Source of the DNA: an uncultured bacterium
Lineage (GTDB): Bacteria > Desulfobacterota > Binatia > HRBIN30 > CADEER01
Assembly: GCA_963757755.1 (NCBI GenBank)
Contig: CAVWTK010000004.1
Location: forward strand, 445,783 to 509,782
DNA length: 64,000 bases
Direction of reading: 5' to 3'
Made by a program: the position numbers and the translations under genes. Below the pieces are notes generated by a model that was not told the DNA's origin, did not search any database, and saw only the letters and a list, made by a program, of their open reading frames with translations. This document shows, in pieces, positions 590 to 60,951 of this stretch; position 1 is the stretch's first letter, and every line of letters starts with the position of its first letter.

Positions 590-2471
590 ATGGCGGCGGG
601 ACAGACGGAGCCCGGTTCTCCCGCACCGCCGCCCTACGTGCCGGCCGATCAGGCACCGGCGGAGCTGTCCGCGCGCGCGGTCCTGCTCGGCATACTGCTG
701 TCGGCCGCGTTCGGCATGGTCAACGCCTACCTGGCGCTGAAGGTGGGGCTGACCGCCTCGGCGTCGATCCCGGCCGCGGTGCTCTCCATGGCGGTGCTGC
801 GCGGCCTGCTCGGACGGGGCACGATCCTCGAGAACAACGTCGTGCAGACCACGGCCTCGTCGGGCGATTCGCTCGCGGCGGGCATCGCGTTCACCGTCCC
901 GGCGCTGATCTTCCTCGGCTACGATCCCAGCGGCTTCCGCATCTTCCTGCTCGCCGCCACCGCCGGGCTGCTCGGCGTCCTGATGCTCATCCCGCTGCGC
1001 CATGAGCTGACGATCGTCGAGCACCCCCGCCTGCCGTTTCCCGAGGGAACGGCCTGCGCCACGGTGCTGATCGCCGGCGATCGCGGCCGCGCCGCGGCGC
1101 GGCCGGTGTTCATCGGCATCGGCCTCGGCGCCGCCTATCAGTTGGTCTCGCGCGGCCTCCAGCTGTGGAACGAAGCGGTGTTCATCACCGCCGAATCGCT
1201 GCACAAGGTGTCGTTCGGTGCCGAGCTGACGCCGCTCTTCCTCGGCGTCGGCTATCTCGTGGGCGCGCGCATCGCCGGCATCATGCTCGCCGGCGGCGTC
1301 CTCGCCTGGATGATCCTGATTCCGCTGTTCGACACTATCGCCGGGACCGGCGCGGGAACGCTGCTCGGCCTCCCCGCCGATCTCGCCACGCAGGGTGCGC
1401 AGGCCGATCTGGAGCACGCAGGTCCGCTTCGTCGGCGCCGGCGCGGTGGCGTGCGGTGGCGTGTGGTCGATCGCGCGCGCCATGCCGGTGATGTGGCGCG
1501 GTGTGCAGTCGCTGCTCGCCGCGGCGGCGCAGCGCGGGCTGCACGACGTCCCGCGCACCGAGCGCGATCTGCCGCCGGCAGTGGTCATCGGCGGCACGGC
1601 CGCGCTCGGCCTGGCGATGTGGCTGGTCCCCGCGTACGAGATGCATCTGCCGGAGGTCGGCCTGGCGCTCGTCTTCAGCTTCTTTTTCGTCGTCGTCTCG
1701 GGGCAGATCGTCGGACTGATCGGCACGACCTCGCAGCCCATCTCCGGTATGACGATTACCGCGCTGTTGGTGACGGCAGCGGTCTTGAGCGCGCTCGGCT
1801 ACGATGGGCACACCGGCACGGCGGCAACCCTGGCGGTGGCGGCGATCGTCTGCACCGCGGCGGCGCTGGCCGGCGACACCATCCAGGACTTCAAGTGCGG
1901 GGCCCTGGTCGGCGCGACGCCGCGTGCCCTCGAGATCTCGCAGATGATCGGGGTCGCGGTGGCGGCGCTGCGCGCCGGATGGCTCATCGCGCTCCTGCAC
2001 GCGGCCTACACGCTGGGCTCGCCGGCCCTGCCGGCGCCGCAGGCCAGGCTCATGGCGACGCTGGCCGACGGGGTCATGCACGGCCAACTCCCGTGGGCGC
2101 TGCTCGGGCTCGGCGTCGTGCTCGCCGCCATCGCCGAGCTCGCCGGCATCGCCAGCCTGCCATTCGCGATCGGACTCTACCTGCCGATCACCACCACCGC
2201 GTCGCTCATCTTCGGCGGCCTCATCGCCGCCTACTGGGGCCGCGGCCAGCGTGACGACGATCCCGCCACCCTGTTCGCCTCCGGCTTGATCGCCGGTGAC
2301 GCCCTGCTCGGCGTCCTCTTCGCCGGCCTCATCGTCGCCGGTTGGGGCAACGCCCTCGCACTCCGCACGCCTGCCGACAGCGGCGCTCTCGAGGCCGCGA
2401 TCACCGCCGTCCCATTCGTCGTCCTCGCCTGGGCGCTCAGCCGATATGCCCGCCGCGGCGCCGCGGCGTGA
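590..2471 (+). CDS. OPT family oligopeptide transporter, reading frame broken once near 1400
   Basis: The N-terminal half is in ORF 590.. (LLGILLSAAFGMVNAYLALKVGL..., FPEGTACATVL). The C-terminal half is in ORF 1395..2471 (VRFVGAGAVACGG..., GDTIQDFKCGALVGATP, LPFAIGLYLP). Both halves are polytopic membrane sequence typical of OPT/EspB-type transporters. The two frames join only through a 1-nt shift. Confidence 0.8.
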
Positions 2472-14801: not shown

Positions 14802-15799
14802 TCATGGAAGCACCCGCAACCACGTCTGCGCCAGCACCGCCTCGCCGATGAGCAGGAGCATCCCCGCCAAAACGGCAGCCAGACGTAGATCTCGTCGTAG
14901 TCGAGATACTGCAGCCCCTCCTGGGAGGTGGTCTCCAGTTTGTCGATCTCGTCGTAGATCTGACGCAGGGTCGCGGTATCGGTGGCGCGGAAGTAGCGAC
15001 CGCCGGTCGCTTCGGCGATGTGCTGGAGCGTCTCCTCGTCGACGTCGACCGGCATGCTGACGTAGACCTTGCGGCCGAACGGATCGACCTGCGGATACGG
15101 CGCGGTGCCGCGCGTGCCGGCGCCGATGGTGTAGACGCGGTAGCCGAGCGCCTTGGCACTCTCGGCGGCGGTCATCGGCGGGACCTTGCCGGCGTTGCTC
15201 TGCCCGTCGGTGAGCAGGATGACGATCTTGCTCTTCGCCTCCGAGCTCTCCAGGCGGCCGACCGCGGTCGCCAGCGCGGAGCCGACCGCGGTGCCGTCCT
15301 CGATCATGCCGATGCGGGCGCGGTCGAGGTTGGCTGAGCAGCCAGCCGTGGTCGAGCGTCAGCGGCGCCTGCGTGTAGGGGCGCGCCGCGAAGAGCACCA
15401 GGCCGACGCGATCGTTGGGGCGCTTGTCGAGAAACTCGCGCACGACTGGCTTCACCGCTTCGAGCCGGTTGGCGCGCGTCGCCATCGAGCTGAAAGTCCT
15501 CCGCCAGCATGCTGCTCGACAGGTCGACCGCCAGCATGATGTCGATGCCCTCGGCGCGGACCTGCGTCGCGGCCTTGCCGAGCTGCGGCCGTGCGAGCGC
15601 GAGGATCAACAGACCCAGCGCCGCGACGCGCAGCGCCGGAAGCAGCCAACGCCAATGCGCCCGCCGCCCGCGGACCGACGGCGCGCACCGCCTCCATGAC
15701 CGGGAACGGAAGCGTCGGCGGAGCGTTGCGCCGCCGGCCGCGCGTCAGGAACGGCAGCAGCACGAGGAGCAGCAGCGCCCACGGATCATGCAGCTGCAC
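14802..15799 (-). pseudogene. BatA-like VWA domain protein, frame broken several times as assembled
   Basis: Fragments read as follows:
- (V)QLHDPWALLLLVLLPFL.
- ILALARPQ...GIDIMLAVDLSSSMLAEDF.
- NRLEAVKPVVREFLDKRPNDRVGLVLFAARPYTQAPLTLDHGWL.
- MIEDGTAVGSALATAV..L...AKSKIVILLTDGQSNAG...YTIGAG.
- A C-terminal TM segment ...LAGMLLLIGEAVLAQTWLRVLP with its stop at 14802. Confidence 0.7.
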
Positions 15800-16753
15800 G
15801 CGGCACCTCCTCCGGGGCGGTCGAATGCGACGAACTCGCGCGCCGGCGTCGATGGGCGCGCTCGGCATCCGAGGGCGCCGGATGGTGGCGCGCGAACTTC
15901 ACCAGGTCGGCTTCGCCGAGGAACTGGCCGAGCAGCGACGCGGTGCGCCGGCGCGAGCTGCGGCGTCGCGCTGCGCCGCCTGGAGGAACTCCTCGGTCGT
16001 CATCTCCGGCGCGCGCAGGCGGAAGCGCGCTTCGAGGTACTCGCGCACGATCGACGAGAGGCGCACGTAGAATTCCTCGTGGCGACCCTGCCTCGATCAG
16101 ATGCGCCGGCGCTGCAAGCTTGCGCCAGCGCCTCGAGGGCCAACCTCGTGCGCCGGGCGCGCCGGCACCAGCACGCCCGCCCGCGGCGCGCGTGAACCAG
16201 CGCATCAGCAGCAGGGCGATCGCCGACCAGCAATCAGCGCCGCCGGCGACGATCCACAGCAGCGGCGTGTAGTCGCGCGGCACGCGCCACCGGACCCTTG
16301 ATGTCGCGCACGTCGCTCGGCGGCGTCGCGCCGGCCGCGTCCACAGGCTCTGCACGAACACCAGGGCATCCGGCACGCGCGCGATCTCCCAGTCGCCGCC
16401 GGCGACGCGGTAGCTGGACGCTCGGCCCCGGCACGTTCTGGTTGCCGGTGAAGTAGGTCACGAGCGTGGTACCACCGTTGCACGACGGTCGTACCGCCGT
16501 CCTCGCGATTCGGCTCCTGCGCCGAAGTCCGCGACCTGGAAGTCGCCGATCTGGCGCCGATCTGCGGCATCTCGACCTCGACCCCGGTGGGGGCCGTCAC
16601 TTCGATCGTGTAGCGGAACGGTGTGCCGATGGTCAGCGGCCGCGATTCGACGGTCGCCTTGGCGGTGACCGGCGCCGGCGCATCCTCCTGCGCCCACGCC
16701 GTGGACGCGGCCACCAGCAGGAGCACCAGCGCCGCGTGGAACCCCGTGCGCAT
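15786..16753 (-). pseudogene. Signal-peptide protein with BatD-like N-terminal segment and DUF4381-like C-terminus, frame broken several times
   Basis: MRTGFHAALVLLLVAASTAWAQ...LTIGTPFRYTIEVTAPTGVEVEMPQIG, then pieces in other frames (DFQVADFGA, TYFTGNQNVPGPSVQ, a TM LLWIVAGGA..AIALLL), and finally ...LLGQFLGEADLVKFARHHP, the motif I associate with DUF4381. It overlaps the batA start. Confidence 0.45.
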
Positions 16754-18888: not shown

Positions 18889-20160
18889 TCAGGCCGGGCA
18901 GGAGCCGAGCGCGACGACGACCGCGGCGATGATCTCGTTGATGGTGACGCTGCCGTCGCCGTTGGTGTCGCCGGCCGGGCAATCGGTCGCGGGCGCGGTC
19001 CCGAGGGCGATGTTCACCATCACGATGAGCTCGTCGATCCGCACGACGCCGTCGCCATTGCAGTCGCCGGGACAGGCGCCGCCCGGCGTGACCGTCGCGA
19101 GCGGCGATCCGGTCGCGGTGCCGGTGACGGTGGCGATCGGGCCGGTGGGCGTTGCCGCCGCCGTTGTCGGCGGCGATCCGGTCACCGTGGCAGTCGCGGT
19201 GGCGACCGGCCCGGTGGCCATTGCCGTCGCCGTTGCCGGCGGTGATCCGGTCACTGTGGCAGTCGCGGTGGCGACCGGCCCGGTGGCCGTTGCCGTCGCC
19301 GTTGCCGGCGGCGATGCGGTGGCGGTGGCGATCGGCGTGGTCGCAGTCCCGGTCGCCGTGGCCATCATCGACGTGGCGGTCGGTGTCGGCGTCTCCGGCT
19401 GCGCCACGATCAGCAGTCCCTTCAGGTCGGCGGGTGGCCAGCCAGCCGCCTGCAGAGAACCGTCGTAGGCGATCTCCCAATTGTCCGACTCCGGGTCGTA
19501 CTCGAGGACATCCTCGTCATCGAAGGTGACCGGCGGGTTGCCGATGAGACCGCTGCCGTCGAACGAGAGGAACAGGTGACCGCGATGATTGACGTAGGCG
19601 GCATCCAGGTCGAGCCCCGGTGCCACACCCGCCGCGGCGGCGTCGAAGAACATCGAGAACGCCGTCCCCTCGTAGAGCACCAGATCACCCGGTGCCACGG
19701 TCAGATCGCCGAGCTTCACGGTGACGTCGAACGACATGACCAGGGACTCCCCTTGAGCGAACGACAACGCGTCCACCAGGACGCCGTCGGGAATGCCCGC
19801 CGCCGCCGCGTCGAGAAATGGATGGTAGGTCGAGCCGCTCAGACGGACGACGTCGCCGGCACGGGCGGTGAAGTCGCCGAAGTCGACGGTCGTATCGAAG
19901 GTCAACAGATCATCGCCGTCGCCGATGTTCACGAATGCGGTGATCCGCGTGCCTTCGGGGATTTCGCCGAGCTGGACGCGGGTGAGATTGCCCATCAGGT
20001 CGTCGACGGCGGCCTCGTGCGGCGAGACGGTGACGCCGTTCAGCTTGAGGGTGATGTCGGGCACGAACCAGAGCGACAGCAGCGGCGTCGGCGCCGCCGT
20101 CGCAGCCGTGACGGCGGCGAGCACCGCCAGCGCCAGGGCGAGTCGAAGGCCGTGCCTCAT
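18889..20160 (-). CDS. Secreted repeat protein with Thr/Pro/Ala linker and C-terminal dockerin-like double repeat
   Basis: In-frame ATG at 20160 gives the signal peptide MRHGLRLALALAVLAAVTAATAAP. It is followed by three repeats of about 50 aa (LLTFDTTVDFGD.., LVMSFDVTVKLGD.., LFLSFDGSGLIGN..), a TATATG linker, and a C-terminal CPGDCNGDGVVRIDELIVMVNIALG...CPAGDTNGDGSVTINEIIAAVVVALG. Confidence 0.7.
   Translation of the reverse strand: MRHGLRLALALAVLAAVTAATAAPTPLLSLWFVPDITLKLNGVTVSPHEAAVDDLMGNLTRVQLGEIPEGTRITAFVNIGDGDDLLTFDTTVDFGDFTARAGDVVRLSGSTYHPFLDAAAAGIPDGVLVDALSFAQGESLVMSFDVTVKLGDLTVAPGDLVLYEGTAFSMFFDAAAAGVAPGLDLDAAYVNHRGHLFLSFDGSGLIGNPPVTFDDEDVLEYDPESDNWEIAYDGSLQAAGWPPADLKGLLIVAQPETPTPTATSMMATATGTATTPIATATASPPATATATATGPVATATATVTGSPPATATAMATGPVATATATVTGSPPTTAAATPTGPIATVTGTATGSPLATVTPGGACPGDCNGDGVVRIDELIVMVNIALGTAPATDCPAGDTNGDGSVTINEIIAAVVVALGSCPA
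19099..19330 (-). repeat. Tandem 69-nt (23-aa) coding repeat in the linker
   Basis: Units start at about 19099, 19168, 19237 and 19306 (cggcgg[c/t]gatccggtcac[c/t]gtggcagtcgcggtggcgaccggcccggtggcc[a/g]ttgccgtcgccgttgc). They encode TGSPPATATA.ATGPVATATATV repeats. Confidence 0.85.
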
Positions 20161-25837: not shown

Positions 25838-27424
25838 TCAGGGCAACACGCCGGACAGGTCGATCGTTCCCTTCGCCGAGACCGCGCCTGGTCCGGGGAT
25901 CCTGGCGACGAAGTCCAGCAGCGGGCCGGCCGACGGCACGCAGAACGTCCCCGCCAGCGTCATTTGAAGCGCGTCGATACCGCCGCCCGGCGCCACGCCG
26001 GTCTCGGAGATGCTGCGCACGCCAGGGATGCCGAACGCGCCCTGCACGGTCTGGCCGGGGCAGAAGAAGCCGTCGGTCGAGGTCATGGACGACGCGCCGG
26101 TGGTCAGCCCCGGCAGCACGACGCGCAGCGAGGCCAGGAACGTGTTGGTCTGCGGCGGACAGTCATTCGTCGTCCCGCCGGAACCGATCGGCGTGCAGGA
26201 CAGGCCCATGTTGTCGCCGCTGTTGCAGACACCGCTCTCGCAACGCGGACACGGCGAGTCCGCATTGCCGGTGACGTAGATCCGGCTCTCGAGCGCCGCC
26301 GCGAGCGTCGCGGTCGGCGGCACGAGTTGGACGTTGCCGCACATGTCCGTGAGGAAGGCGTTGACGATGCAGGTGGGCAGCCCCGACGCCGTCAGCGGCA
26401 CCGGCGGCCCGAAGTAGCAGTTGGCGGTCAGCGCGCAGGCGCCGGTGATGCCGTTGCAGTCGTCGTCGAACTCGCAGGTGCCGTGTCCGTCGAACCCCGG
26501 CGCGCCGTTGACGCAGCTGCGCCCCGGCCCGGCGCCCTTGCTACAATCGTTCGGCCCGGTCCCGGCGCTGCCCGCCAGCGTGACGCTCGGCGGCAGGAGA
26601 TTGAGGTTGACGACGTCGAGCTTCGACTCCGCACCGTCGGGAAGCCGCAATCCGGGGAGGAATCCGGTGTAGAGACAGCCCACACCGAGGCCGTCGATGG
26701 TCGCGGCCGCGCCGTCGGCGACCGAACCGGAGAACGGCGCCGCCGGGTCGGGATTGGCGAGGCCGGCGCCGCCGCAGTTGGCGCTCCCCATCTGAATGGT
26801 GAACGGCACCTGCGCGATCGGCGGCAGCGGCACGCCGTTGCTCTGGCAGATCGCCGGGAAGGTCGGCGTCGCCGTGACCGTGGGCGTGATGGTCGGCGTC
26901 AACGTGATGGTCGGCGTCTGGGTGATCGTCGCCGTCGGCGTGATGGTCGGCGTGTACGCCGCAGCGCAACCGCTCGCACCACAGGCGTCGCAACAGCTCG
27001 TGAAGACGCCCGTGCACACACTGCCGCCGGCGGGCGCCTTGCACTTGTCGGCGCTCGGCTTGATCCCACACTTCGTCTTGCCGCTCGAGGTCGTCCGGCA
27101 GCACGTAACGGCGCCCGGGGCGCGGCCGCAGATGGACCGCGTCGAACAGCGTTTCGCGCTCACCGCGCAGGCCACCGACAGTCCGTCGAGAAACATGGCG
27201 CGACTGATGACGTGCTTCGCGCACCGCACGTAGGCGCCGTGCGACTGCGCGGTGGCGCAATCGCACTGTTCCGCCACATCGGCGCGTACAGCCGCGAGGG
27301 CCACCGCATCACCGGGCAGATCGCCGCACTTCGACGCGCGCGCCGCGCCCGGCACCGCCGCGACGCACATCGCGAACACCGCGACTTGCCACCAGCGACC
27401 GGCCTGTACTCGCAGTCCCACCAT
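25838..27424 (-). CDS. Secreted cysteine-rich protein with TPTIT linker (function unknown)
   Basis: Start at M 27424 (MVGLRVQAGRWWQVAVFAMCVAAVPGAARA). The N-terminal Cys-rich module is CDCATAQSHGAYVRCAKHV...CGRAPGAVTCCR...KCGIK...C. This is followed by (TPTITx)n and a C-terminal region of about 330 aa with many further Cys residues (CEFDDDCNG, CPRCESGVCNSG). Confidence 0.65.
   Translation of the reverse strand: MVGLRVQAGRWWQVAVFAMCVAAVPGAARASKCGDLPGDAVALAAVRADVAEQCDCATAQSHGAYVRCAKHVISRAMFLDGLSVACAVSAKRCSTRSICGRAPGAVTCCRTTSSGKTKCGIKPSADKCKAPAGGSVCTGVFTSCCDACGASGCAAAYTPTITPTATITQTPTITLTPTITPTVTATPTFPAICQSNGVPLPPIAQVPFTIQMGSANCGGAGLANPDPAAPFSGSVADGAAATIDGLGVGCLYTGFLPGLRLPDGAESKLDVVNLNLLPPSVTLAGSAGTGPNDCSKGAGPGRSCVNGAPGFDGHGTCEFDDDCNGITGACALTANCYFGPPVPLTASGLPTCIVNAFLTDMCGNVQLVPPTATLAAALESRIYVTGNADSPCPRCESGVCNSGDNMGLSCTPIGSGGTTNDCPPQTNTFLASLRVVLPGLTTGASSMTSTDGFFCPGQTVQGAFGIPGVRSISETGVAPGGGIDALQMTLAGTFCVPSAGPLLDFVARIPGPGAVSAKGTIDLSGVLP
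26886..26957 (-). repeat. Tandem 18-nt coding repeat (TPTITx linker)
   Basis: Four units: gtgatggtcggcgtcaac, gtgatggtcggcgtctgg, gtgatcgtcgccgtcggc, gtgatggtcggcgtgtac. Confidence 0.85.
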
Positions 27425-27514
27425 TCGCGCCCCCTTCTTCGGCGGAGACGCACACGCCTCCGGCCAGCCCAAGTGTGGCCATGCCGGTCGCGGGTTCGAT
27501 AGTTCGCAGATTCT

Positions 27515-46819: not shown

Positions 46820-51348
<4,529 letters not shown>

Positions 51349-51362
51349 GTGACGTTTCCTTC

Positions 51363-51905
51363 TCACCCGGTGGATTTCGCCTGCAGAAGAATCTTGGTCA
51401 TCGACTTGCGCGACCGCCGCTTCACCGGCACCTCCGGCAGCACGGCCAGTTGGCGCTCGGTGTGCGTCGACAACACCACCATCGTCTCGGTCCGCGTCAC
51501 CCCCTCGATCGCGCGCAGGTGGCTGATCAACTCCTCGAGGCTCGAGGTGTCCGCCGTGCGCACCTTCAACAGCAACGTGTAGCCGCCGGTGACGTGATGG
51601 CACTCGAGCACCTCGGGCCGACCGGCGATCCGCTCCTCGACATCGCGGATGCCGCTCGGATGCGAGGTCAGCACGCCGATGAAGGCACCGATGTCGTGCC
51701 CCAGCTTGCGCGGGTCGATGAGCGCCCGATAGCCGACGATCACGCCGCTCTCCTCGAGCTTCTTGATGCGCTCGATCACCGCCGGCGCGGACAGCCCCAC
51801 CCGCTCGCCGATCTTGGCGAGCGGCGTCTTACAATGCTCCTGGAGCAGGGCGAGGATCCGAACGTCGATCTCGTCGAGATCAGGCTGTTCCTCATCGAAT
51901 TTCAT
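51363..51905 (-). CDS. Lrp/AsnC family transcriptional regulator
   Basis: [47 protein letters not shown] (HTH) plus an RAM/ACT-like C-terminal domain. Its stop is 14 nt upstream of the gltB start. Confidence 0.88.
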
Positions 51906-52247
51906 AAGGTGTACGAGGGGGGATAGTCGAAGTCAGAACTGGATTCAAGACTTCCGCCGAAGGAAATTCGGTCATTCGTGAAATGAACAGAATGAATCGT
52001 TGGTCCTGATGGGGCGCGGATGTGAGGCCGGCCGACCGCCGCCGGTTGCCTATGCGGGTTTTCCACAATGTCGCTCGCCCGCCGTGACGCGCTACGCTGC
52101 GCCGCAGACAGTGCAATTGAGGTTTGACTTAAGGCACCGGTAGAACCTACACGAATGACAGTAGGCCGAAATCGTCGGGTGGTAGCTGCCGCGTCTGGGG
52201 CGACGCGGGCAGGACGTTCGCGAGTGCAGAATCAGGGGAGGGGACAC

Positions 52248-53264
52248 ATGCAGATGCGGTGGGCAGGACTCATCTTCGGGGGCACCATGGCGGCGATTGT
52301 CGCGGTGGTGACGTTGGCCGCGCCGCGCGCCGACGCCATGTGCTGCGTCTGCCGCGGCGGTGGCTGCAATGCCGGCTTCTGCATCGACAGCCTCGCCGGC
52401 GCCGTCGCGTGCACCCAGCTCTGCTCCAACGCGAACTGCCCGGACGTGGTGTTCGACAACACCGACAGTTGCAGCGGCGGCTGCAGCGTCGTGGCGGACC
52501 TGCCGACCGCCACCCCGAGTTGGACGCCGACGCAGACCTGGACGCCGAGTCAGACGCCCACGGAGACGCCGACCGCCAGCTTCACCGCGACCACGACCAG
52601 CACCCCGACGATCACCAACACGCCCACCATCACCAACACCGCGACGGTTACGCCCACGCCGAAGCAGTGCTGTCAGAACGACGCCATTCCGGCGTGCGGC
52701 CCGGTCGTCTCGCCGTTCACCTGCAACACGCCGGGCGTCTTCATCAACAACGCCGAATGCAACGGCTCGATCGGCCGCTGCGTGAGCCCGACGATCACGC
52801 TGACACCGTCGATGACGCCGACGCCCACCTCGACGCCGACCAGCACGCCGACGCGGACCGCCACGTCGACGCCGAGCGACACCCCCAAGGTGCCGACGAG
52901 CGTCGATCCGTACAAGTGCTACCGGATCAAGACGACGCTCGGAAAACCCAAGCCGGCGAAGCGCGTGGTCAAGTTGATCGATCAGTTTGGCGCCGAGTTC
53001 AACGCGGTGCTGCGCCCGTTCCTCGAGTGCAACCCCGCCGTGCGCACGGACGGCACGGCGACGCCGGGCACGCTGGCGAACCCGACCGTCCACCTCGTCT
53101 GCTACAAGATCAAGACGGAGAAGAAACCCGGCAACGACGACCTGAAGCTGCCGCGCAAGGTGATGATCCGCGACGAGGTCGAGGCCGATGTGGAATCCAC
53201 CGAGTTCTACGACGTCATGAAGTCGGATCTCGTGTGCATGCCGGCCATCAAAGAGCTGCTCTGA
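52248..53264 (+). CDS. Secreted protein: 10-Cys 'MCCVC' domain, Thr/Pro linkers, internally duplicated C-terminal domain
   Basis: ATG at 52248 follows GGGGAGGGG. The signal peptide ends ...APRADA. The mature part begins [53 protein letters not shown]. It is a paralog of the N-terminus of 59767..60951. Confidence 0.65.
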   Translation: MQMRWAGLIFGGTMAAIVAVVTLAAPRADAMCCVCRGGGCNAGFCIDSLAGAVACTQLCSNANCPDVVFDNTDSCSGGCSVVADLPTATPSWTPTQTWTPSQTPTETPTASFTATTTSTPTITNTPTITNTATVTPTPKQCCQNDAIPACGPVVSPFTCNTPGVFINNAECNGSIGRCVSPTITLTPSMTPTPTSTPTSTPTRTATSTPSDTPKVPTSVDPYKCYRIKTTLGKPKPAKRVVKLIDQFGAEFNAVLRPFLECNPAVRTDGTATPGTLANPTVHLVCYKIKTEKKPGNDDLKLPRKVMIRDEVEADVESTEFYDVMKSDLVCMPAIKELL

Positions 53265-54197: not shown

Positions 54198-54322
54198 GCC
54201 GGCTGTCTGACAAGTCGCCGCCGGCGATGCAATCGCGGCAGCCCTGGCCGGCCGTATGGAGATGGGCGAAGGGGTTGGATATAGAACGGGGCTTGTCGTC
54301 TCGGCACGGAGGAATCGCCGTC

Positions 54323-55009
54323 ATGTCCAACTCGCGCGGTCGCACCCTGCTCATCGTCATCATCCTGCTCTCCGCGATCCTGCTCGCGGCCGGCAACATC
54401 CTCTGTCATGCCCTGGTGGTACAGGAGCTGACCGGCACCACCCCGCCGGTCGAGGGTGGCCTGATGCAGCAGATCATCCATTCGATCGGCCAGTCGGTCG
54501 GCCAGAACCCGCACTTCGTCTGGTTCTTCAGCGGCGCCCCGTTGCTGATGGGCGTGATCCTCGCCCTGCTCGTCGGGATGCAGGGCGGCGGGACGACCGC
54601 GGCGGCGGCGAGCTCGGCGGGCGGCGACGGCGCCAGCGAGGGCGCGCTGCGCCTGCTCGCCGTTCTCCAGAAGGAGGGCCGCCTGGTGGACTTCCTCGAG
54701 GAGGACATCCAGCCGTACACCGACGCGCAGGTCGGTGCCGCCGTGCGCGCGATCCACTCCGGCTGCCGCAAGGCGCTGCACGAACGCATGGAGATCACCC
54801 GCATCTTCGGCGAGGAGGACGGTGCGTCGGTCGAGGTCGCCTCGGGATTCGATCCGGCGGCGGTGCGTCTCACCGGCAACGTGCACGGCCAGCCGCCGTT
54901 CCACGGCGTGCTCCAGCACGGCGGCTGGCGCGCCGCGCACGTCTCGTTGCCGAAGACGGCGGGCGTCGACAACGCGATCCTCGCGCCGGCCGAGGTCGAG
55001 ATCGCCTAG
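54323..55009 (+). CDS. DUF2760-like membrane-anchored protein
   Basis: GGAGG lies upstream of the ATG at 54323. There are two N-terminal TM helices, then ALRLLAVLQKEGRLVDFLEEDIQPYTDAQVGAAVRAIHSGCRKAL...GFDPAAVRLTGNVHGQPPFHGVLQHGGWRA...ILAPAEVEI. I recognise this as the DUF2760 core. Confidence 0.72.
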   Translation: MSNSRGRTLLIVIILLSAILLAAGNILCHALVVQELTGTTPPVEGGLMQQIIHSIGQSVGQNPHFVWFFSGAPLLMGVILALLVGMQGGGTTAAAASSAGGDGASEGALRLLAVLQKEGRLVDFLEEDIQPYTDAQVGAAVRAIHSGCRKALHERMEITRIFGEEDGASVEVASGFDPAAVRLTGNVHGQPPFHGVLQHGGWRAAHVSLPKTAGVDNAILAPAEVEIA

Positions 55010-55045
55010 GCAATCAGCGCAGCACGCACAGAGGACCACAGAGCT

Positions 55046-56773
55046 TTGGCAGCCCGTTACGTAGTCGGCATCGACCTCGGCACCACCAACTCAGTCGTCG
55101 CCTATGCGCCGGTGGACGGCAGCGACGCGATCCGCGTTCTGCCTGTCCCGCAGCTGGTCGCGCCCGGCACGACGGAGTCGGCGCCGCAGCTGCCGTCGTT
55201 CCTCTACCTGCCGGCGGCCGGGGAGAGCGCATCGGGCGACGCCATCGTCGGCGCCTACGCGCGCCAGCGCGCGAGCGAGGTGCCGGACCGCGTCATCGCC
55301 TCCGCGAAGTCGTGGCTCTCCTACGCCGGCCCCGATCGCGACGCGGTGCTGCTGCCGTGGGGCGCGACCGACGACGTGCCCAAGCTGTCGCCGGTCGCCG
55401 CGTCGGCGCGCTACCTCGCCCACCTCGCCGACGCCTGGAACACGGCGTTCCCGAAGGATCCGCTCGCCAAGCAGGACGTGCTGCTGACGGTGCCGGCGTC
55501 GTTCGACCCCGCCGCGCGCGAGCGCACGGTGCAGGCCGCCGAGGACGCCGGGTTGCCCACGGTCACGCTGCTCGAGGAACCGCAGGCGGCGCTCTACGCC
55601 TGGATCGACGCCGCCGGCGAGGACTGGCGGCGGCAGGTGACGGTCGGCGACGCGCTGCTGGTCTGCGACGTTGGCGGCGGCACCTCGGACTTCAGCCTGA
55701 TCGCCGCCCGCGATGAAGGCGGCAGCCTCGAGCTCGAACGGGTCGCGGTGGGCGAGCACATCCTCCTCGGCGGCGACAACATGGATCTCGCGCTCGCCCA
55801 CGCGGTGCGCGAGCGCCTCGCCGCCGACGGGACCGCGCTCGATGCCTGGCAGCTGCGCGGTCTGGTCGCGAGCTGTCGCGCCGCCAAGGAGCAGCTGCTC
55901 GGCACCGACCCGCCGGCGAGCCTGCCGGTCGCGATTCTCGGCCGCGGCCGCAAGGTGGTCGGCGGTGCGTTGCGGGCCGAGGTCGCGCGTGACGACGCGA
56001 CGACGTCGCTGGTCGACGGCTTCTTCCCCCGCTGCGCGCTCGGCGATCGCCCGCAGACGCCGCGCCGCACCGGCCTGCAGGAGCTCGGCCTGCCCTACGC
56101 CGCCGATGCCGCCGTCACGCGCCACCTGGCGAGCTTTCTCAGCCGCAGCGCCGATGCCGCTCCCGCCCCGACGGCGGTGCTCTTCAATGGCGGCGTCATG
56201 CGGGCCCCGGCGCTGCGCGAGCGCCTGCTGGCCGTGCTCGCCGGCTGGTATCCCGGGGGCGCCGTCCGCGCGCTCGGCGGCGCCGACCCAGAATTCGCCG
56301 TCGCGCGCGGCGCCGCCTACTACGGGCTCGCCCGGCGCGGCCGCGGCGTGCGCATCCGCGGCGGCATCGCTCGCACGTTCTACGTCGGCATCGAGACCGC
56401 CATGCCCGCCGTGCCCGGCATGCGGCCGCCGATCAAGGCGTTGTGCGTGGTCCCGCACGGCCTCGAAGAGGGCAGCGCGGTCGAGCTGCCGTCGCAGGAG
56501 CTCGCGCTGGTGGTCGGTGAGCCGACGGAATTCCGCTTCCTCAGCTCGACGACGCGCCGCGAGGATCATCCCGGCCTGCTCCTCGACAGCTGGAGCGCCG
56601 ATGAGATCGCCGAGCTGCCGCCGCTGCACACCACGCTCGAGTGGACCGGGCACGAGGGCGCCGTCATCCCCGTCCACCTCGAAGCCGACGTCAACGAGCT
56701 CGGCATCCTCGAGCTGCGCTGCGTCAGCCGCGACGGGCAGCGGTGGAAGCTCGAGTTCAACGTCAGGACATAA
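55046..56773 (+). CDS. Atypical Hsp70-like ATPase (575 aa, no canonical DnaK substrate-binding domain)
   Basis: The actin/Hsp70 NBD motifs are VGIDLGTTNS, LTVPASFD, DVGGGTSDFS, LLGGDNMD and LFNGG. The C-terminal region of about 150 aa is unlike the DnaK SBD but is shared with the next gene. Confidence 0.85.
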   Translation: MAARYVVGIDLGTTNSVVAYAPVDGSDAIRVLPVPQLVAPGTTESAPQLPSFLYLPAAGESASGDAIVGAYARQRASEVPDRVIASAKSWLSYAGPDRDAVLLPWGATDDVPKLSPVAASARYLAHLADAWNTAFPKDPLAKQDVLLTVPASFDPAARERTVQAAEDAGLPTVTLLEEPQAALYAWIDAAGEDWRRQVTVGDALLVCDVGGGTSDFSLIAARDEGGSLELERVAVGEHILLGGDNMDLALAHAVRERLAADGTALDAWQLRGLVASCRAAKEQLLGTDPPASLPVAILGRGRKVVGGALRAEVARDDATTSLVDGFFPRCALGDRPQTPRRTGLQELGLPYAADAAVTRHLASFLSRSADAAPAPTAVLFNGGVMRAPALRERLLAVLAGWYPGGAVRALGGADPEFAVARGAAYYGLARRGRGVRIRGGIARTFYVGIETAMPAVPGMRPPIKALCVVPHGLEEGSAVELPSQELALVVGEPTEFRFLSSTTRREDHPGLLLDSWSADEIAELPPLHTTLEWTGHEGAVIPVHLEADVNELGILELRCVSRDGQRWKLEFNVRT

Positions 56774-56777
56774 CTCC

Positions 56778-56846
56778 TTCACCACGGAGGCACGGAGACA
56801 CGGAGATCGTGGCCTCGTCTCCGTGTCTCCGTGCCTCCGTGGTGAA
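56778..56846. repeat. Composite hairpin element (e): perfect 29-bp inverted repeat of CACGGAG subrepeats
   Basis: TTCACCACGGAGGCACGGAGACACGGAGA (56778-56806), loop TCGTGGCCTCG, TCTCCGTGTCTCCGTGCCTCCGTGGTGAA (56818-56846). The two arms are exact reverse complements. It fills the spacer between the two Hsp70-like genes. Confidence 0.9.
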
Positions 56847-56854
56847 AAAGGCCT

Positions 56855-59627
<2,773 letters not shown>

Positions 59628-59766: not shown

Positions 59767-60951
59767 CTACTGCGGCGGGGCTGCCAGAGCGGCGTTGATC
59801 GCGAGGATCAACTCTTCGATCGTGACCTTGCCGTCGCCGTTGACGTCGAAGGCCGGGCAGACGCTGATCGGGAGATTGCCGAGCGCGATGTTGACGCCGG
59901 TGATCAGGTCCTCGATCGAGACGACGCCGTTGCCGGCGCAGTCGCCCGGAATGGTGGTCGGACTGGGCGACACAGACGGCGTCAGCGAAGGCGTGACCGT
60001 CGGCGTGGCCGTGACGGCACCCGTGCTCGTCGGCGTCACGCTCCCTGTCGGCGTGAGCGTCGCGGCCTGCGTCTGGGTCACCGTGAGCGTGGCGCTCGGC
60101 GAGGTGGTCGCGGTTGCCACCGGCGTCCCTGTCGGCGTGGCGCTCGCCACGCCGGTGGGCGTCCCCGTCGACGTCGAGGTCGGGTCGCCCGTCACCGTGG
60201 GGGGCGGAGTCGCCGTGCCGGTCGCCATGACGGTCGGCGTCGTCGTGCCAGTCGCCGTGCGACTCGCGGATGCGGTGGCGGTCGCCGTCCCCGTCGGGAT
60301 TCCCGTATGCGTCGCTGTCGCCGTCGCGGCCTCGGTCTGGGTGGCGGTCGCCGACGCCGTCGGCGGCTCCGTCCCGGTCGGCGTGACCGAGGCCGTGTCG
60401 GTGGGCGTCGCCGTCGGCGTCGCCGACAGCGCTTCCGTCTCGGTCGGCGTCGCCGAGGGCGCTTCCGTCTCGGTCGGCGTCGCCGAGGGCGTCGCCGATG
60501 GGGTCTCGGTGTCCACCGGCGTCGACGTCGGGGTGGGCGTCTCCGTCATCGTCCCGGTCTCGGTCGCGGTCGCCGTCTGGCTGGTCGTCTCGGTGGCGGT
60601 CGCGGTCGCCGTCACCGACGGAGTCTCGGATGGCGTGGGCGTCGTCGTCGGCGTCTCGCTCGGGGTGGCGGTCGGCAGGTCCGGCTGGCCGTCGCAGCCC
60701 CCGGCGCACGTGTCGGCGCTCTCGAACACCACGTTGGGGCAGTCCGATTGGGCGCACAACATGGCGCAATCGAGCGTGTTGGCGATGCCGTCCACGCAGA
60801 ACGCCGCGCCGACGCAGCCCTCGCAGACGCAGCACATGGCGCCGGCCGACCGCGGCGCGACGCTGATGACCGCGCAGACGAGGAACCCGGCGATGAGGCC
60901 GCGGACCGCGTCCGCTCGCACTCCGTTGAGCCGCTGACGCATGGGCCGCAT
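59767..60951 (-). CDS. Secreted protein: 'MCCVC' 10-Cys domain, very long Thr/Pro/Ala/Glu linker, C-terminal dockerin-like double repeat
   Basis: The signal peptide ends ...APRSAGA. The mature part begins [53 protein letters not shown] linker of about 250 aa follows. The C-terminus is [24 protein letters not shown]...[25 protein letters not shown]. The start is at M 60951 or 60942. Confidence 0.65.
60421..60510 (-). repeat. Tandem 30-nt coding repeat in the linker
   Basis: Units are cgccgacagcgcttccgtctcggtcggcgt and cgccgagggcgcttccgtctcggtcggcgt, plus a partial third. They encode TPTETEA(P/L)SA units. Confidence 0.8.

Follow-up and report, generated by a model that had tools for sequence, protein, structure and literature searches.

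What is the short, cysteine-packed segment that opens two otherwise dissimilar proteins encoded in the genome of an uncultured bacterium (GTDB lineage Desulfobacterota; Binatia; HRBIN30; CADEER01)? The two genes, here called A and B, lie in a stretch of 64,000 nucleotides of contig CAVWTK010000004.1 (assembly GCA_963757755.1, positions 445,783 to 509,782 of the forward strand), which was analysed as a whole and is referred to below as the window; unless a locus elsewhere is named, positions are those of the window. Gene A (52248..53264, + strand) has a third-position G+C fraction (GC3) of 0.90 and translates into a secreted modular protein of 338 amino acids. Gene B (59767..60951, − strand) translates into a secreted modular protein of 394 amino acids, and its start codon is ambiguous (60990, 60960, 60951 or 60942). 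An earlier note, made from the sequence alone, had described the two as secreted paralogues in which a signal peptide is followed directly by MCCVC and a domain of about 60 amino acids with ten cysteines, had not recognised the domain, and had suggested that it is a shuffled N-terminal module. Judged by its sequence, this domain, hereafter the head, is genuine and conserved and represents a family that had not been classified before.

A conserved ten-cysteine domain

Both open reading frames translate as the earlier note had claimed. In a BLASTP comparison the proteins align at the N-terminus alone, with 42 identities in 85 positions (49%, E=1e-17). Downstream of the head they are matched only by low-complexity Thr/Pro stretches, in agreement with the claimed divergence after DLPTATPS. 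Each copy contains ten cysteines, which can be aligned with an indel of one or two residues near the fourth. The copies are present in the ranges first given for them (52338-52523 and 60655-60837), but these ranges are one to two codons too long. In A the head comprises amino acids 31-90 (MCCVC…DLPTATP, 52338..52517, + strand), as supported by the family alignment and the AlphaFold2 model; in B it comprises amino acids 39-97 (MCCVC…DLPTATP, 60661..60837, − strand), as supported by BLASTP and alignment. The identical DNA reported at the junction with the signal peptide was also found, but the run is 19 nucleotides long and includes the 18-mer originally described (CGCCATGTGCTGCGTCTGC, at 52334 and 60841). 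Where the domain ends on its 3′ side, a further 25 nucleotides are identical (CGGACCTGCCGACCGCCACCCCGAG, 52495..52519 and 60659..60683); they code for the conserved DLPTATPS tail. No third copy of the domain was found in a six-frame scan of the window for CC.C.

Word-indexed protein searches gave zero candidates with the 61-amino-acid domain, nothing at E≤0.01 with a 27-sequence alignment, and 3 matches only with the C-terminus of A. Because such searches missed the family an exhaustive scan was needed, and 1.84 billion (1.84e9) representative proteins were searched with HMMER, using a profile built from the A and B sequences and a cut-off of E≤1e-3. This search, which the earlier note had recommended, retrieved 26 relatives (18 of them at E≤1e-10). 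In almost all relatives the profile match lies at residues ~20-120, directly after the signal peptide. The number of proteins retrieved and the position of the match together show that the resemblance between the two copies is not due to chance. The candidate P0024 (2578 amino acids) was rejected as low-complexity, since it matched in nine short stretches at profile positions 37-58 only.

All members come from metagenomes or metagenome-assembled genomes (MAGs), each on few contigs. Their public names are "hypothetical protein" and, once, "MAG: dockerin type I repeat-containing protein [bacterium]". A scan of GTDB genomes identified one MAG with the family (JANNRA010000101.1, locus L001); the MAG GCA_039934135.1 carries it too. 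Metagenomes of the Joint Genome Institute (JGI) yielded no loci when scanned with patterns from the two-sequence A and B set, and seven further loci with patterns from a five-sequence subset. The family is rare and restricted to a few uncultured lineages.

In the alignment of 27 domain sequences (A2), residues C2, C3, C5, F14, C15, D17, C25, C29, C34, C45 and G48 are invariant and C49 is nearly so, while the position of the fourth cysteine varies by 1-3. Exactly ten cysteines are present in 26 of the 27 domains, where cysteine accounts for 17% of the residues. The composition is acidic, with 11% Asp and Glu, 0.8% Lys and Arg and 0.1% His, and methionine occurs at the first (+1) position only. 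The tail that follows the last cysteine, (D/E)-(L/F/V)-P-T-A-T-P, is conserved. Neither A nor B gave a significant Pfam or NCBIfam match for the head, and no model for it emerged when each of the 27 sequences was scanned against Pfam at E≤10. With nothing significant from a PDB profile search or from Foldseek either, the domain is as unrecognised as it had first appeared.

Export of the head

In all 39 N-terminal copies of the head examined, the preceding residues have the form of a substrate for Sec export and signal peptidase I. An n-region carrying a net positive charge or none is followed by an h-region, and the residues at −3 and −1 are small. The hydrophobic core has a mean Kyte-Doolittle value of 2.95 over 10 amino acids and lies about 6-15 residues before the cleavage site. 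Position −1 is always Ala and position −3 is A, V or S, so that the predicted site, A/V/S-x-A, precedes the CC pair by one residue. The predicted signal peptide of A (amino acids 1-30, MQMRWAGLIFGGTMAAIVAVVTLAAPRADA, 52248..52337, + strand) ends in …LAAPRADA, with an A-D-A site and a core value of 2.75, and its MQxR start is kept in three relatives (P0003, P0004 and P0008). That of B (amino acids 1-38, 60838..60951, − strand) ends in …SVAPRSAGA, with an A-G-A site and a core value of 2.97. The conserved site and hydrophobic core bear out the view that both proteins are secreted with the domain at the mature N-terminus.

The residue at +1 is M in 17 copies, Q in 16 and otherwise E, A, S or T; it is thus other than M in 22 of the 39. 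Internal copies, found in P0001 and P0002, follow a Pro/Thr linker and begin with L or Q. In gene A a Shine-Dalgarno-like sequence (GGGGAGGGG, 52235..52243, + strand) has its GGAGG ending 6 nucleotides before the ATG at 52248, and when the sequence upstream was read, no comparable ribosome-binding site was found before the MCCVC ATG at 52338. The variable +1 residue, the internal copies behind a linker and the upstream ribosome-binding site therefore indicate that the methionine of MCCVC is not a start codon. At locus L002, the JGI gene call for the orthologue of B (15508..16512, − strand) is 297 amino acids long and begins at the MCCVC methionine. Upstream, the same frame contains MRRWARGAGPGRTRVRWQRWAVVLAAALALAPRPSSA, and the call leaves out a signal peptide of 37 residues. 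The JGI start was probably placed at the wrong codon, which conceals that the protein is secreted.

Two other export signals were considered and rejected. The sequences do not match the lipoprotein lipobox [LVI][ASTVI][GAS]C, in which cysteine is the +1 residue: the first cysteine is preceded by M, Q, E, S, T or A, and the position −3 to that cysteine is charged, polar or small (as in D-A-M-C and A-G-A-M-C). Nor do they share a twin-arginine (Tat) motif, S/T-R-R-x-F-L-K immediately ahead of the h-region: neither A nor B has an RR pair adjoining the h-region, and Arg pairs occur in some relatives at inconsistent positions.

Modular architecture and partner domains

The head is joined to several different sets of modules. 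Among its relatives DUF7450 occurs in 6 proteins, Dockerin_1 in 5 and CarboxypepD_reg in 2; a catalytic partner was seen in none. A survey of spread and partners, another check that had been proposed, thus returned metagenomic lineages only and these three partner families. Proteins of the A type (six proteins) combine the head with a six-cysteine middle module and DUF7450. Those of the B type (five Dockerin_1 matches) have long linkers, a dockerin-like double EF-hand module and, in some cases, a middle domain of ~150 amino acids. In two proteins the head is joined to CarboxypepD_reg and dockerin-like repeats, and in P0001 and P0002 it occurs in tandem. The variable downstream modules confirm the suspected module shuffling.

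In A the head is followed by a Thr/Pro-rich linker defined by composition (amino acids 91-139, 52518..52664, + strand), a six-cysteine second module (amino acids 140-179, QCCQND…RCV, 52665..52784, + strand; alignment A8) and a second linker of the same kind (amino acids 180-218, 52785..52901, + strand). The two linkers combined are 42% Thr and 19% Pro. A-type relatives retain the six-cysteine module, and P0006 has two copies of it. The module gave no Pfam match, and the idea that it is a degenerate copy of the head was rejected, hhalign assigning a probability of 1.2%. At the C-terminus of A lies an all-β domain of the DUF7450 type with four conserved cysteines (52902..53261, + strand; Pfam PF24247, alignment A7). 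Its score of 28.1 bits (E=2e-6) exceeds the cut-off of 27 and places it in that family. The AlphaFold2 model of this domain is all-β and of low confidence (predicted local distance difference test score, pLDDT, 63); Foldseek found no significant match with this low-confidence model. A search of the literature on DUF7450 revealed nothing relevant.

In B the head is followed by a single long linker rich in Thr, Ala, Pro and Ser (amino acids 98-333, 59953..60660, − strand), whose 236 residues include 90 Thr (38%), 36 Ala, 34 Pro and 24 Ser. The C-terminal dockerin-like double EF-hand module (amino acids 334-394, 59770..59952, − strand) contains two D-x-N-G-D-G-like loops. It matches Dockerin_1 (PF00404) with 19.2 bits (E=0.0015), below the cut-off of 22.9, and EF-hand_1 with E=1.6e-4; among the five B-type matches in relatives the best reaches E=4.5e-7. 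Four relatives (P0005, P0012, P0013 and P0015) carry a cysteine-containing domain of ~150 amino acids (…VGTAVGQPGSTVGFAVTL…) between linker and dockerin, which B does not have. A cohesin identity for this middle domain of B-type relatives is not supported, the Pfam Cohesin match being E=0.1 only.

Further secreted proteins of the window likewise combine linkers with dockerin-like modules at the C-terminus. In the one encoded at 18889..20150 (− strand) the signal peptide (MRHGLRLALALAVLAAVTAATA) precedes a β-rich region, from which an Ala/Thr/Pro linker leads to a double dockerin-like module at the C-terminus (GDCNGDGVVRIDELI… / DTNGDGSVTINEII…). The design of a stalk plus a dockerin is therefore repeated in this genome.

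Predicted fold and proposed role of the head

AlphaFold2, likewise advised in the earlier note, was run on a 26-sequence alignment of the head. The model has a mean pLDDT of 82.6 and a predicted template modelling score (pTM) of 0.64, with the five models at 80-83, and contains strands at residues 2-6 and 14-17, a helix at 22-31 and a strand at 36-40. The head is thus confidently predicted to be a compact α/β unit of β-β-α-β order. With this model Foldseek gave 0 matches to the PDB at E≤10, and nothing below E=3 in the BFVD viral library.

On balance we consider it probable that A and B are Sec-exported proteins in which a head locked by disulfides serves for binding or display and is borne on a Thr/Pro stalk. 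Export by Sec and cleavage by signal peptidase I after A-x-A would leave a mature chain starting x-C-C-x-C, of which the first ~60 residues would fold to a small acidic β-β-α-β unit. The ten cysteines would most probably oxidise to five disulfides, giving a rigid acidic knob of ~6 kDa. This knob would stand at the distal end of the long stalk, whose Thr/Pro-rich chain probably carries O-linked glycans and adopts an extended form. Attachment or a second activity would be provided by the C-terminal modules, for which A has DUF7450, B a dockerin-like module, and relatives CarboxypepD_reg together with dockerin-like modules. Domain shuffling and duplication would have moved the head between architectures. 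Disulfides are favoured by the even and invariant number of cysteines, Sec export, the absence of His and the confident compact α/β model.

Several points weigh against this reading. The cleavage site was placed by the −3/−1 rule and family conservation only, and the binding role and structure of every member are deduced from sequence or predicted by modelling. The same holds for the disulfide state and for the orientation that makes the head the free rather than the anchored end. Only two aromatic positions are conserved, F14 and F/Y40, and both probably belong to the core, so the aromatic platform typical of carbohydrate binding is not evident.

Of the alternatives, we consider it possible, though doubtful, that the head is a very divergent and shortened member of the PAN/Apple clan (CL0168), that is, a PAN-type protein- or carbohydrate-binding module in which the helix cysteines C25 and C29 would pair with C45 and C34, an arrangement seen in PAN domains. 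One weak PDB profile match (E=0.083) places two stretches of the head on both PAN domains of a fungal Kelch/copper-radical oxidase (6ryv/6ryw/6ryx), the aligned stretch being vD…aCa.lC…C..vvfD…C. The four-cysteine PAN core pattern is present in A2 (C25-x3-C29-x4-C34-x5-F40-x4-C45) and aligns with 6ryv and plasminogen; its C-x3-C-x4-C-x10-C spacing and the β-β-α-β order agree with the PAN core. As a control, six PAN_1 domains were validated with Pfam (44-61 bits). Against these, hhalign brings the same helix and strand together, but with a probability of 0.5%. Moreover, A, B and all 27 domains are without a PAN_1 or PAN_4 match at E≤10, Foldseek found no PDB match, and the head is 15-30 residues shorter, with six additional cysteines that include the N-terminal CCxC. 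The likeness to PAN_1 (PF00024) and PAN_4 (PF14295) domains, such as those of the plasminogen N-terminus, the factor XI apple domains and 6ryv, lies in a small secreted α/β module with a helical C-x3-C followed by C-x3-V-[FY]-D…C, which is disulfide-locked (for the head, presumably so) and typically forms the terminal binding module of modular extracellular proteins. However, the head has ten cysteines in ~60 amino acids, as against 4-6 in 75-90 for PAN, and the N-terminal x-CC-x-C strand and the GGC…LPTATP tail are unique to it.

Similar designs are known from other extracellular proteins. Small disulfide-rich carbohydrate-binding modules (CBMs) carried on Pro/Thr linkers include CBM1, CBM10 and the hevein-type CBM18. 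Like these, the head is a tiny cysteine-rich terminal module on a Pro/Thr-rich, probably glycosylated linker, in company with other modules that include dockerins, but it has no Pfam CBM match, no conserved surface aromatic triad and no catalytic partner. The Myxococcus cysteine-rich repeat (TIGR02232 / PF13948 DUF4215) is a cysteine-rich extracellular repeat of high-GC soil bacteria. It was absent from Pfam and NCBIfam scans of A and B and from Pfam scans of the head domains, and its cysteine spacing is unlike that of the head.

It is unlikely that the head is a new small fold, related neither to PAN nor to defensins, that defines a lineage-specific form of surface display. Here an acidic tip rich in disulfides or thiolates would be borne on a glycosylated stalk docked via dockerin-like modules, in a role new for modules of this kind, such as the capture of metal or mineral cations or service as receptor for the non-cellulosomal dockerins that abound in these soil bacteria.

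Metal binding through thiolates, a possibility raised in the earlier note, is less likely than disulfide formation. The ten thiols would then be ligands in an extracellular thiolate-cluster, metallothionein-like (Cu/Zn/Cd) or redox module, and we judge this improbable. The abundance of cysteine, the CC and CxC motifs and the strongly acidic character of the head would suit such a role. However, a Sec-type signal lacking a consistent twin-arginine motif implies folding in an oxidising compartment, the cysteine count is even and invariant at ten, His is absent, and Met does not occur beyond +1. Moreover, the fold predicted in the absence of metal (pLDDT 83) has a defined helix and strands together with conserved F, D and G, and the cysteine density is well under the approximately 30% of metallothioneins. 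Ferredoxin-type iron-sulphur (CxxCxxCxxxCP) and haem c (CxxCH) sites were rejected; neither spacing is present in A2, P35 is not conserved and there is no His.

A defensin-like antimicrobial peptide or toxin of the cysteine-stabilised αβ (CSαβ) fold, with the CxC of the first strand bonded to the CxxxC of the helix, is very improbable. CSαβ peptides are defined by a CxC motif in a strand and a CxxxC motif in a helix, joined by two disulfides in a fold of β-α-β-β order, and in the head C3-x-C5 lies in the predicted strand 2-6 and C25-x3-C29 in the predicted helix 22-31, within a very small domain. The order of the two motifs is, however, the reverse of that in defensins; the head is acidic where defensins are cationic, has ten cysteines as against 6-8, and is no free peptide, being permanently tethered to large modular proteins. 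Foldseek gave no defensin or toxin match. Membership of the PAN and CSαβ groups is unsupported, and both are structural leads only.

It is scarcely credible that there is no signal peptide, that the MCCVC methionine is a true cytoplasmic start and the upstream frame a high-GC artefact: the JGI call at L002 begins exactly there, but that locus has MRRWARGAGPGRTRVRWQRWAVVLAAALALAPRPSSA in frame upstream, the methionine is replaced by Q, E, S, T or A in 22 of 39 copies, internal copies open with L or Q behind a linker, the −1 Ala and hydrophobic core are kept in all 39, and the ribosome-binding site of gene A precedes the upstream ATG, so that this possibility, which the earlier note had itself allowed for, is contradicted.

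Genomic context and selection

Gene A has gltB-Lrp on one side and a ROK kinase gene on the other, and gene B is flanked by an Hsp70/DUF3731 gene and a gene of the β-lactamase family; both contexts are syntenic in related genomes. Syntenic orthologues of A were found in L001 (6969..8087) and L002 (P0004), and those of B in L002 (15508..16512) and L005 (5920..6918). Between A and B a triad of DUF2760, Hsp70 and Hsp70/DUF3731 genes (54227..59627, + strand) is syntenic in L001, L002 and L005. Distant members are surrounded by unrelated housekeeping genes, as in the cases that lie downstream of an ATP synthase operon or beside mutS. Beyond close relatives, neither a conserved neighbourhood nor a dedicated partner gene was found.

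For the head domain, the ratio of non-synonymous to synonymous substitution (dN/dS) was 0.24 between A and its L002 orthologue, 0.33-0.38 between B and its syntenic orthologues, and 0.64 between A and the more distant L001 orthologue. These values indicate that the domain is under purifying selection. Synonymous divergence (pS) between the A and B domains is 0.25, lower than that between orthologues (0.40-0.53). The extreme codon bias common to the genes (GC3 about 0.9) is enough to explain this low value. Limited gene conversion at the domain edges may also have contributed to it and to the identical DNA runs.

Other features of the window

Three genes of the window appear to be split. gltB is divided between 50497..51603 and 46820..50659 (− strand) in different frames, with a frameshift or assembly indel near 50500-50660, and the orthologue is intact in L001 (1518 amino acids) and L002 (1508 amino acids). 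The second Hsp70-family gene (Hsp70 plus DUF3731) is divided between 56855..58276 and 57843..59627 (+ strand), again in different frames, and is intact in L001, L002 and L005 (928, 923 and 917 amino acids respectively). An OPT oligopeptide transporter is apparently divided between 590..2254 and 1395..2471 (+ strand), the latter corresponding to profile positions 283-622 of 623. The three apparent frameshifts suggest assembly indel errors.

A further secreted cysteine-rich protein, encoded at 25838..27472 (− strand), has an N-terminal domain of ~150 amino acids with many cysteines, some of them in CC pairs, which a TPTITPT linker joins to a large C-terminal region that also contains cysteine. 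The protein is outside the MCCVC family. The window contains one tRNA only and gave no rRNA or Rfam match.

Significance of the head family

For now the head is one among many uncharacterised cysteine-rich domains, and it will hold little surprise for a specialist. It is a new building block in a familiar kind of modular secreted protein, and adds an unclassified domain family of about 26 sequence clusters to the modular extracellular proteins of uncultured high-GC bacteria. The public gene call for the B orthologue at L002, which starts past the signal peptide, shows how easily secretion of such proteins is missed. "Non-cellulosomal" dockerin-like modules are very common in such bacteria, and B, as a minimal protein of head, stalk and dockerin, is a simple test object for what non-cellulosomal dockerin systems display.

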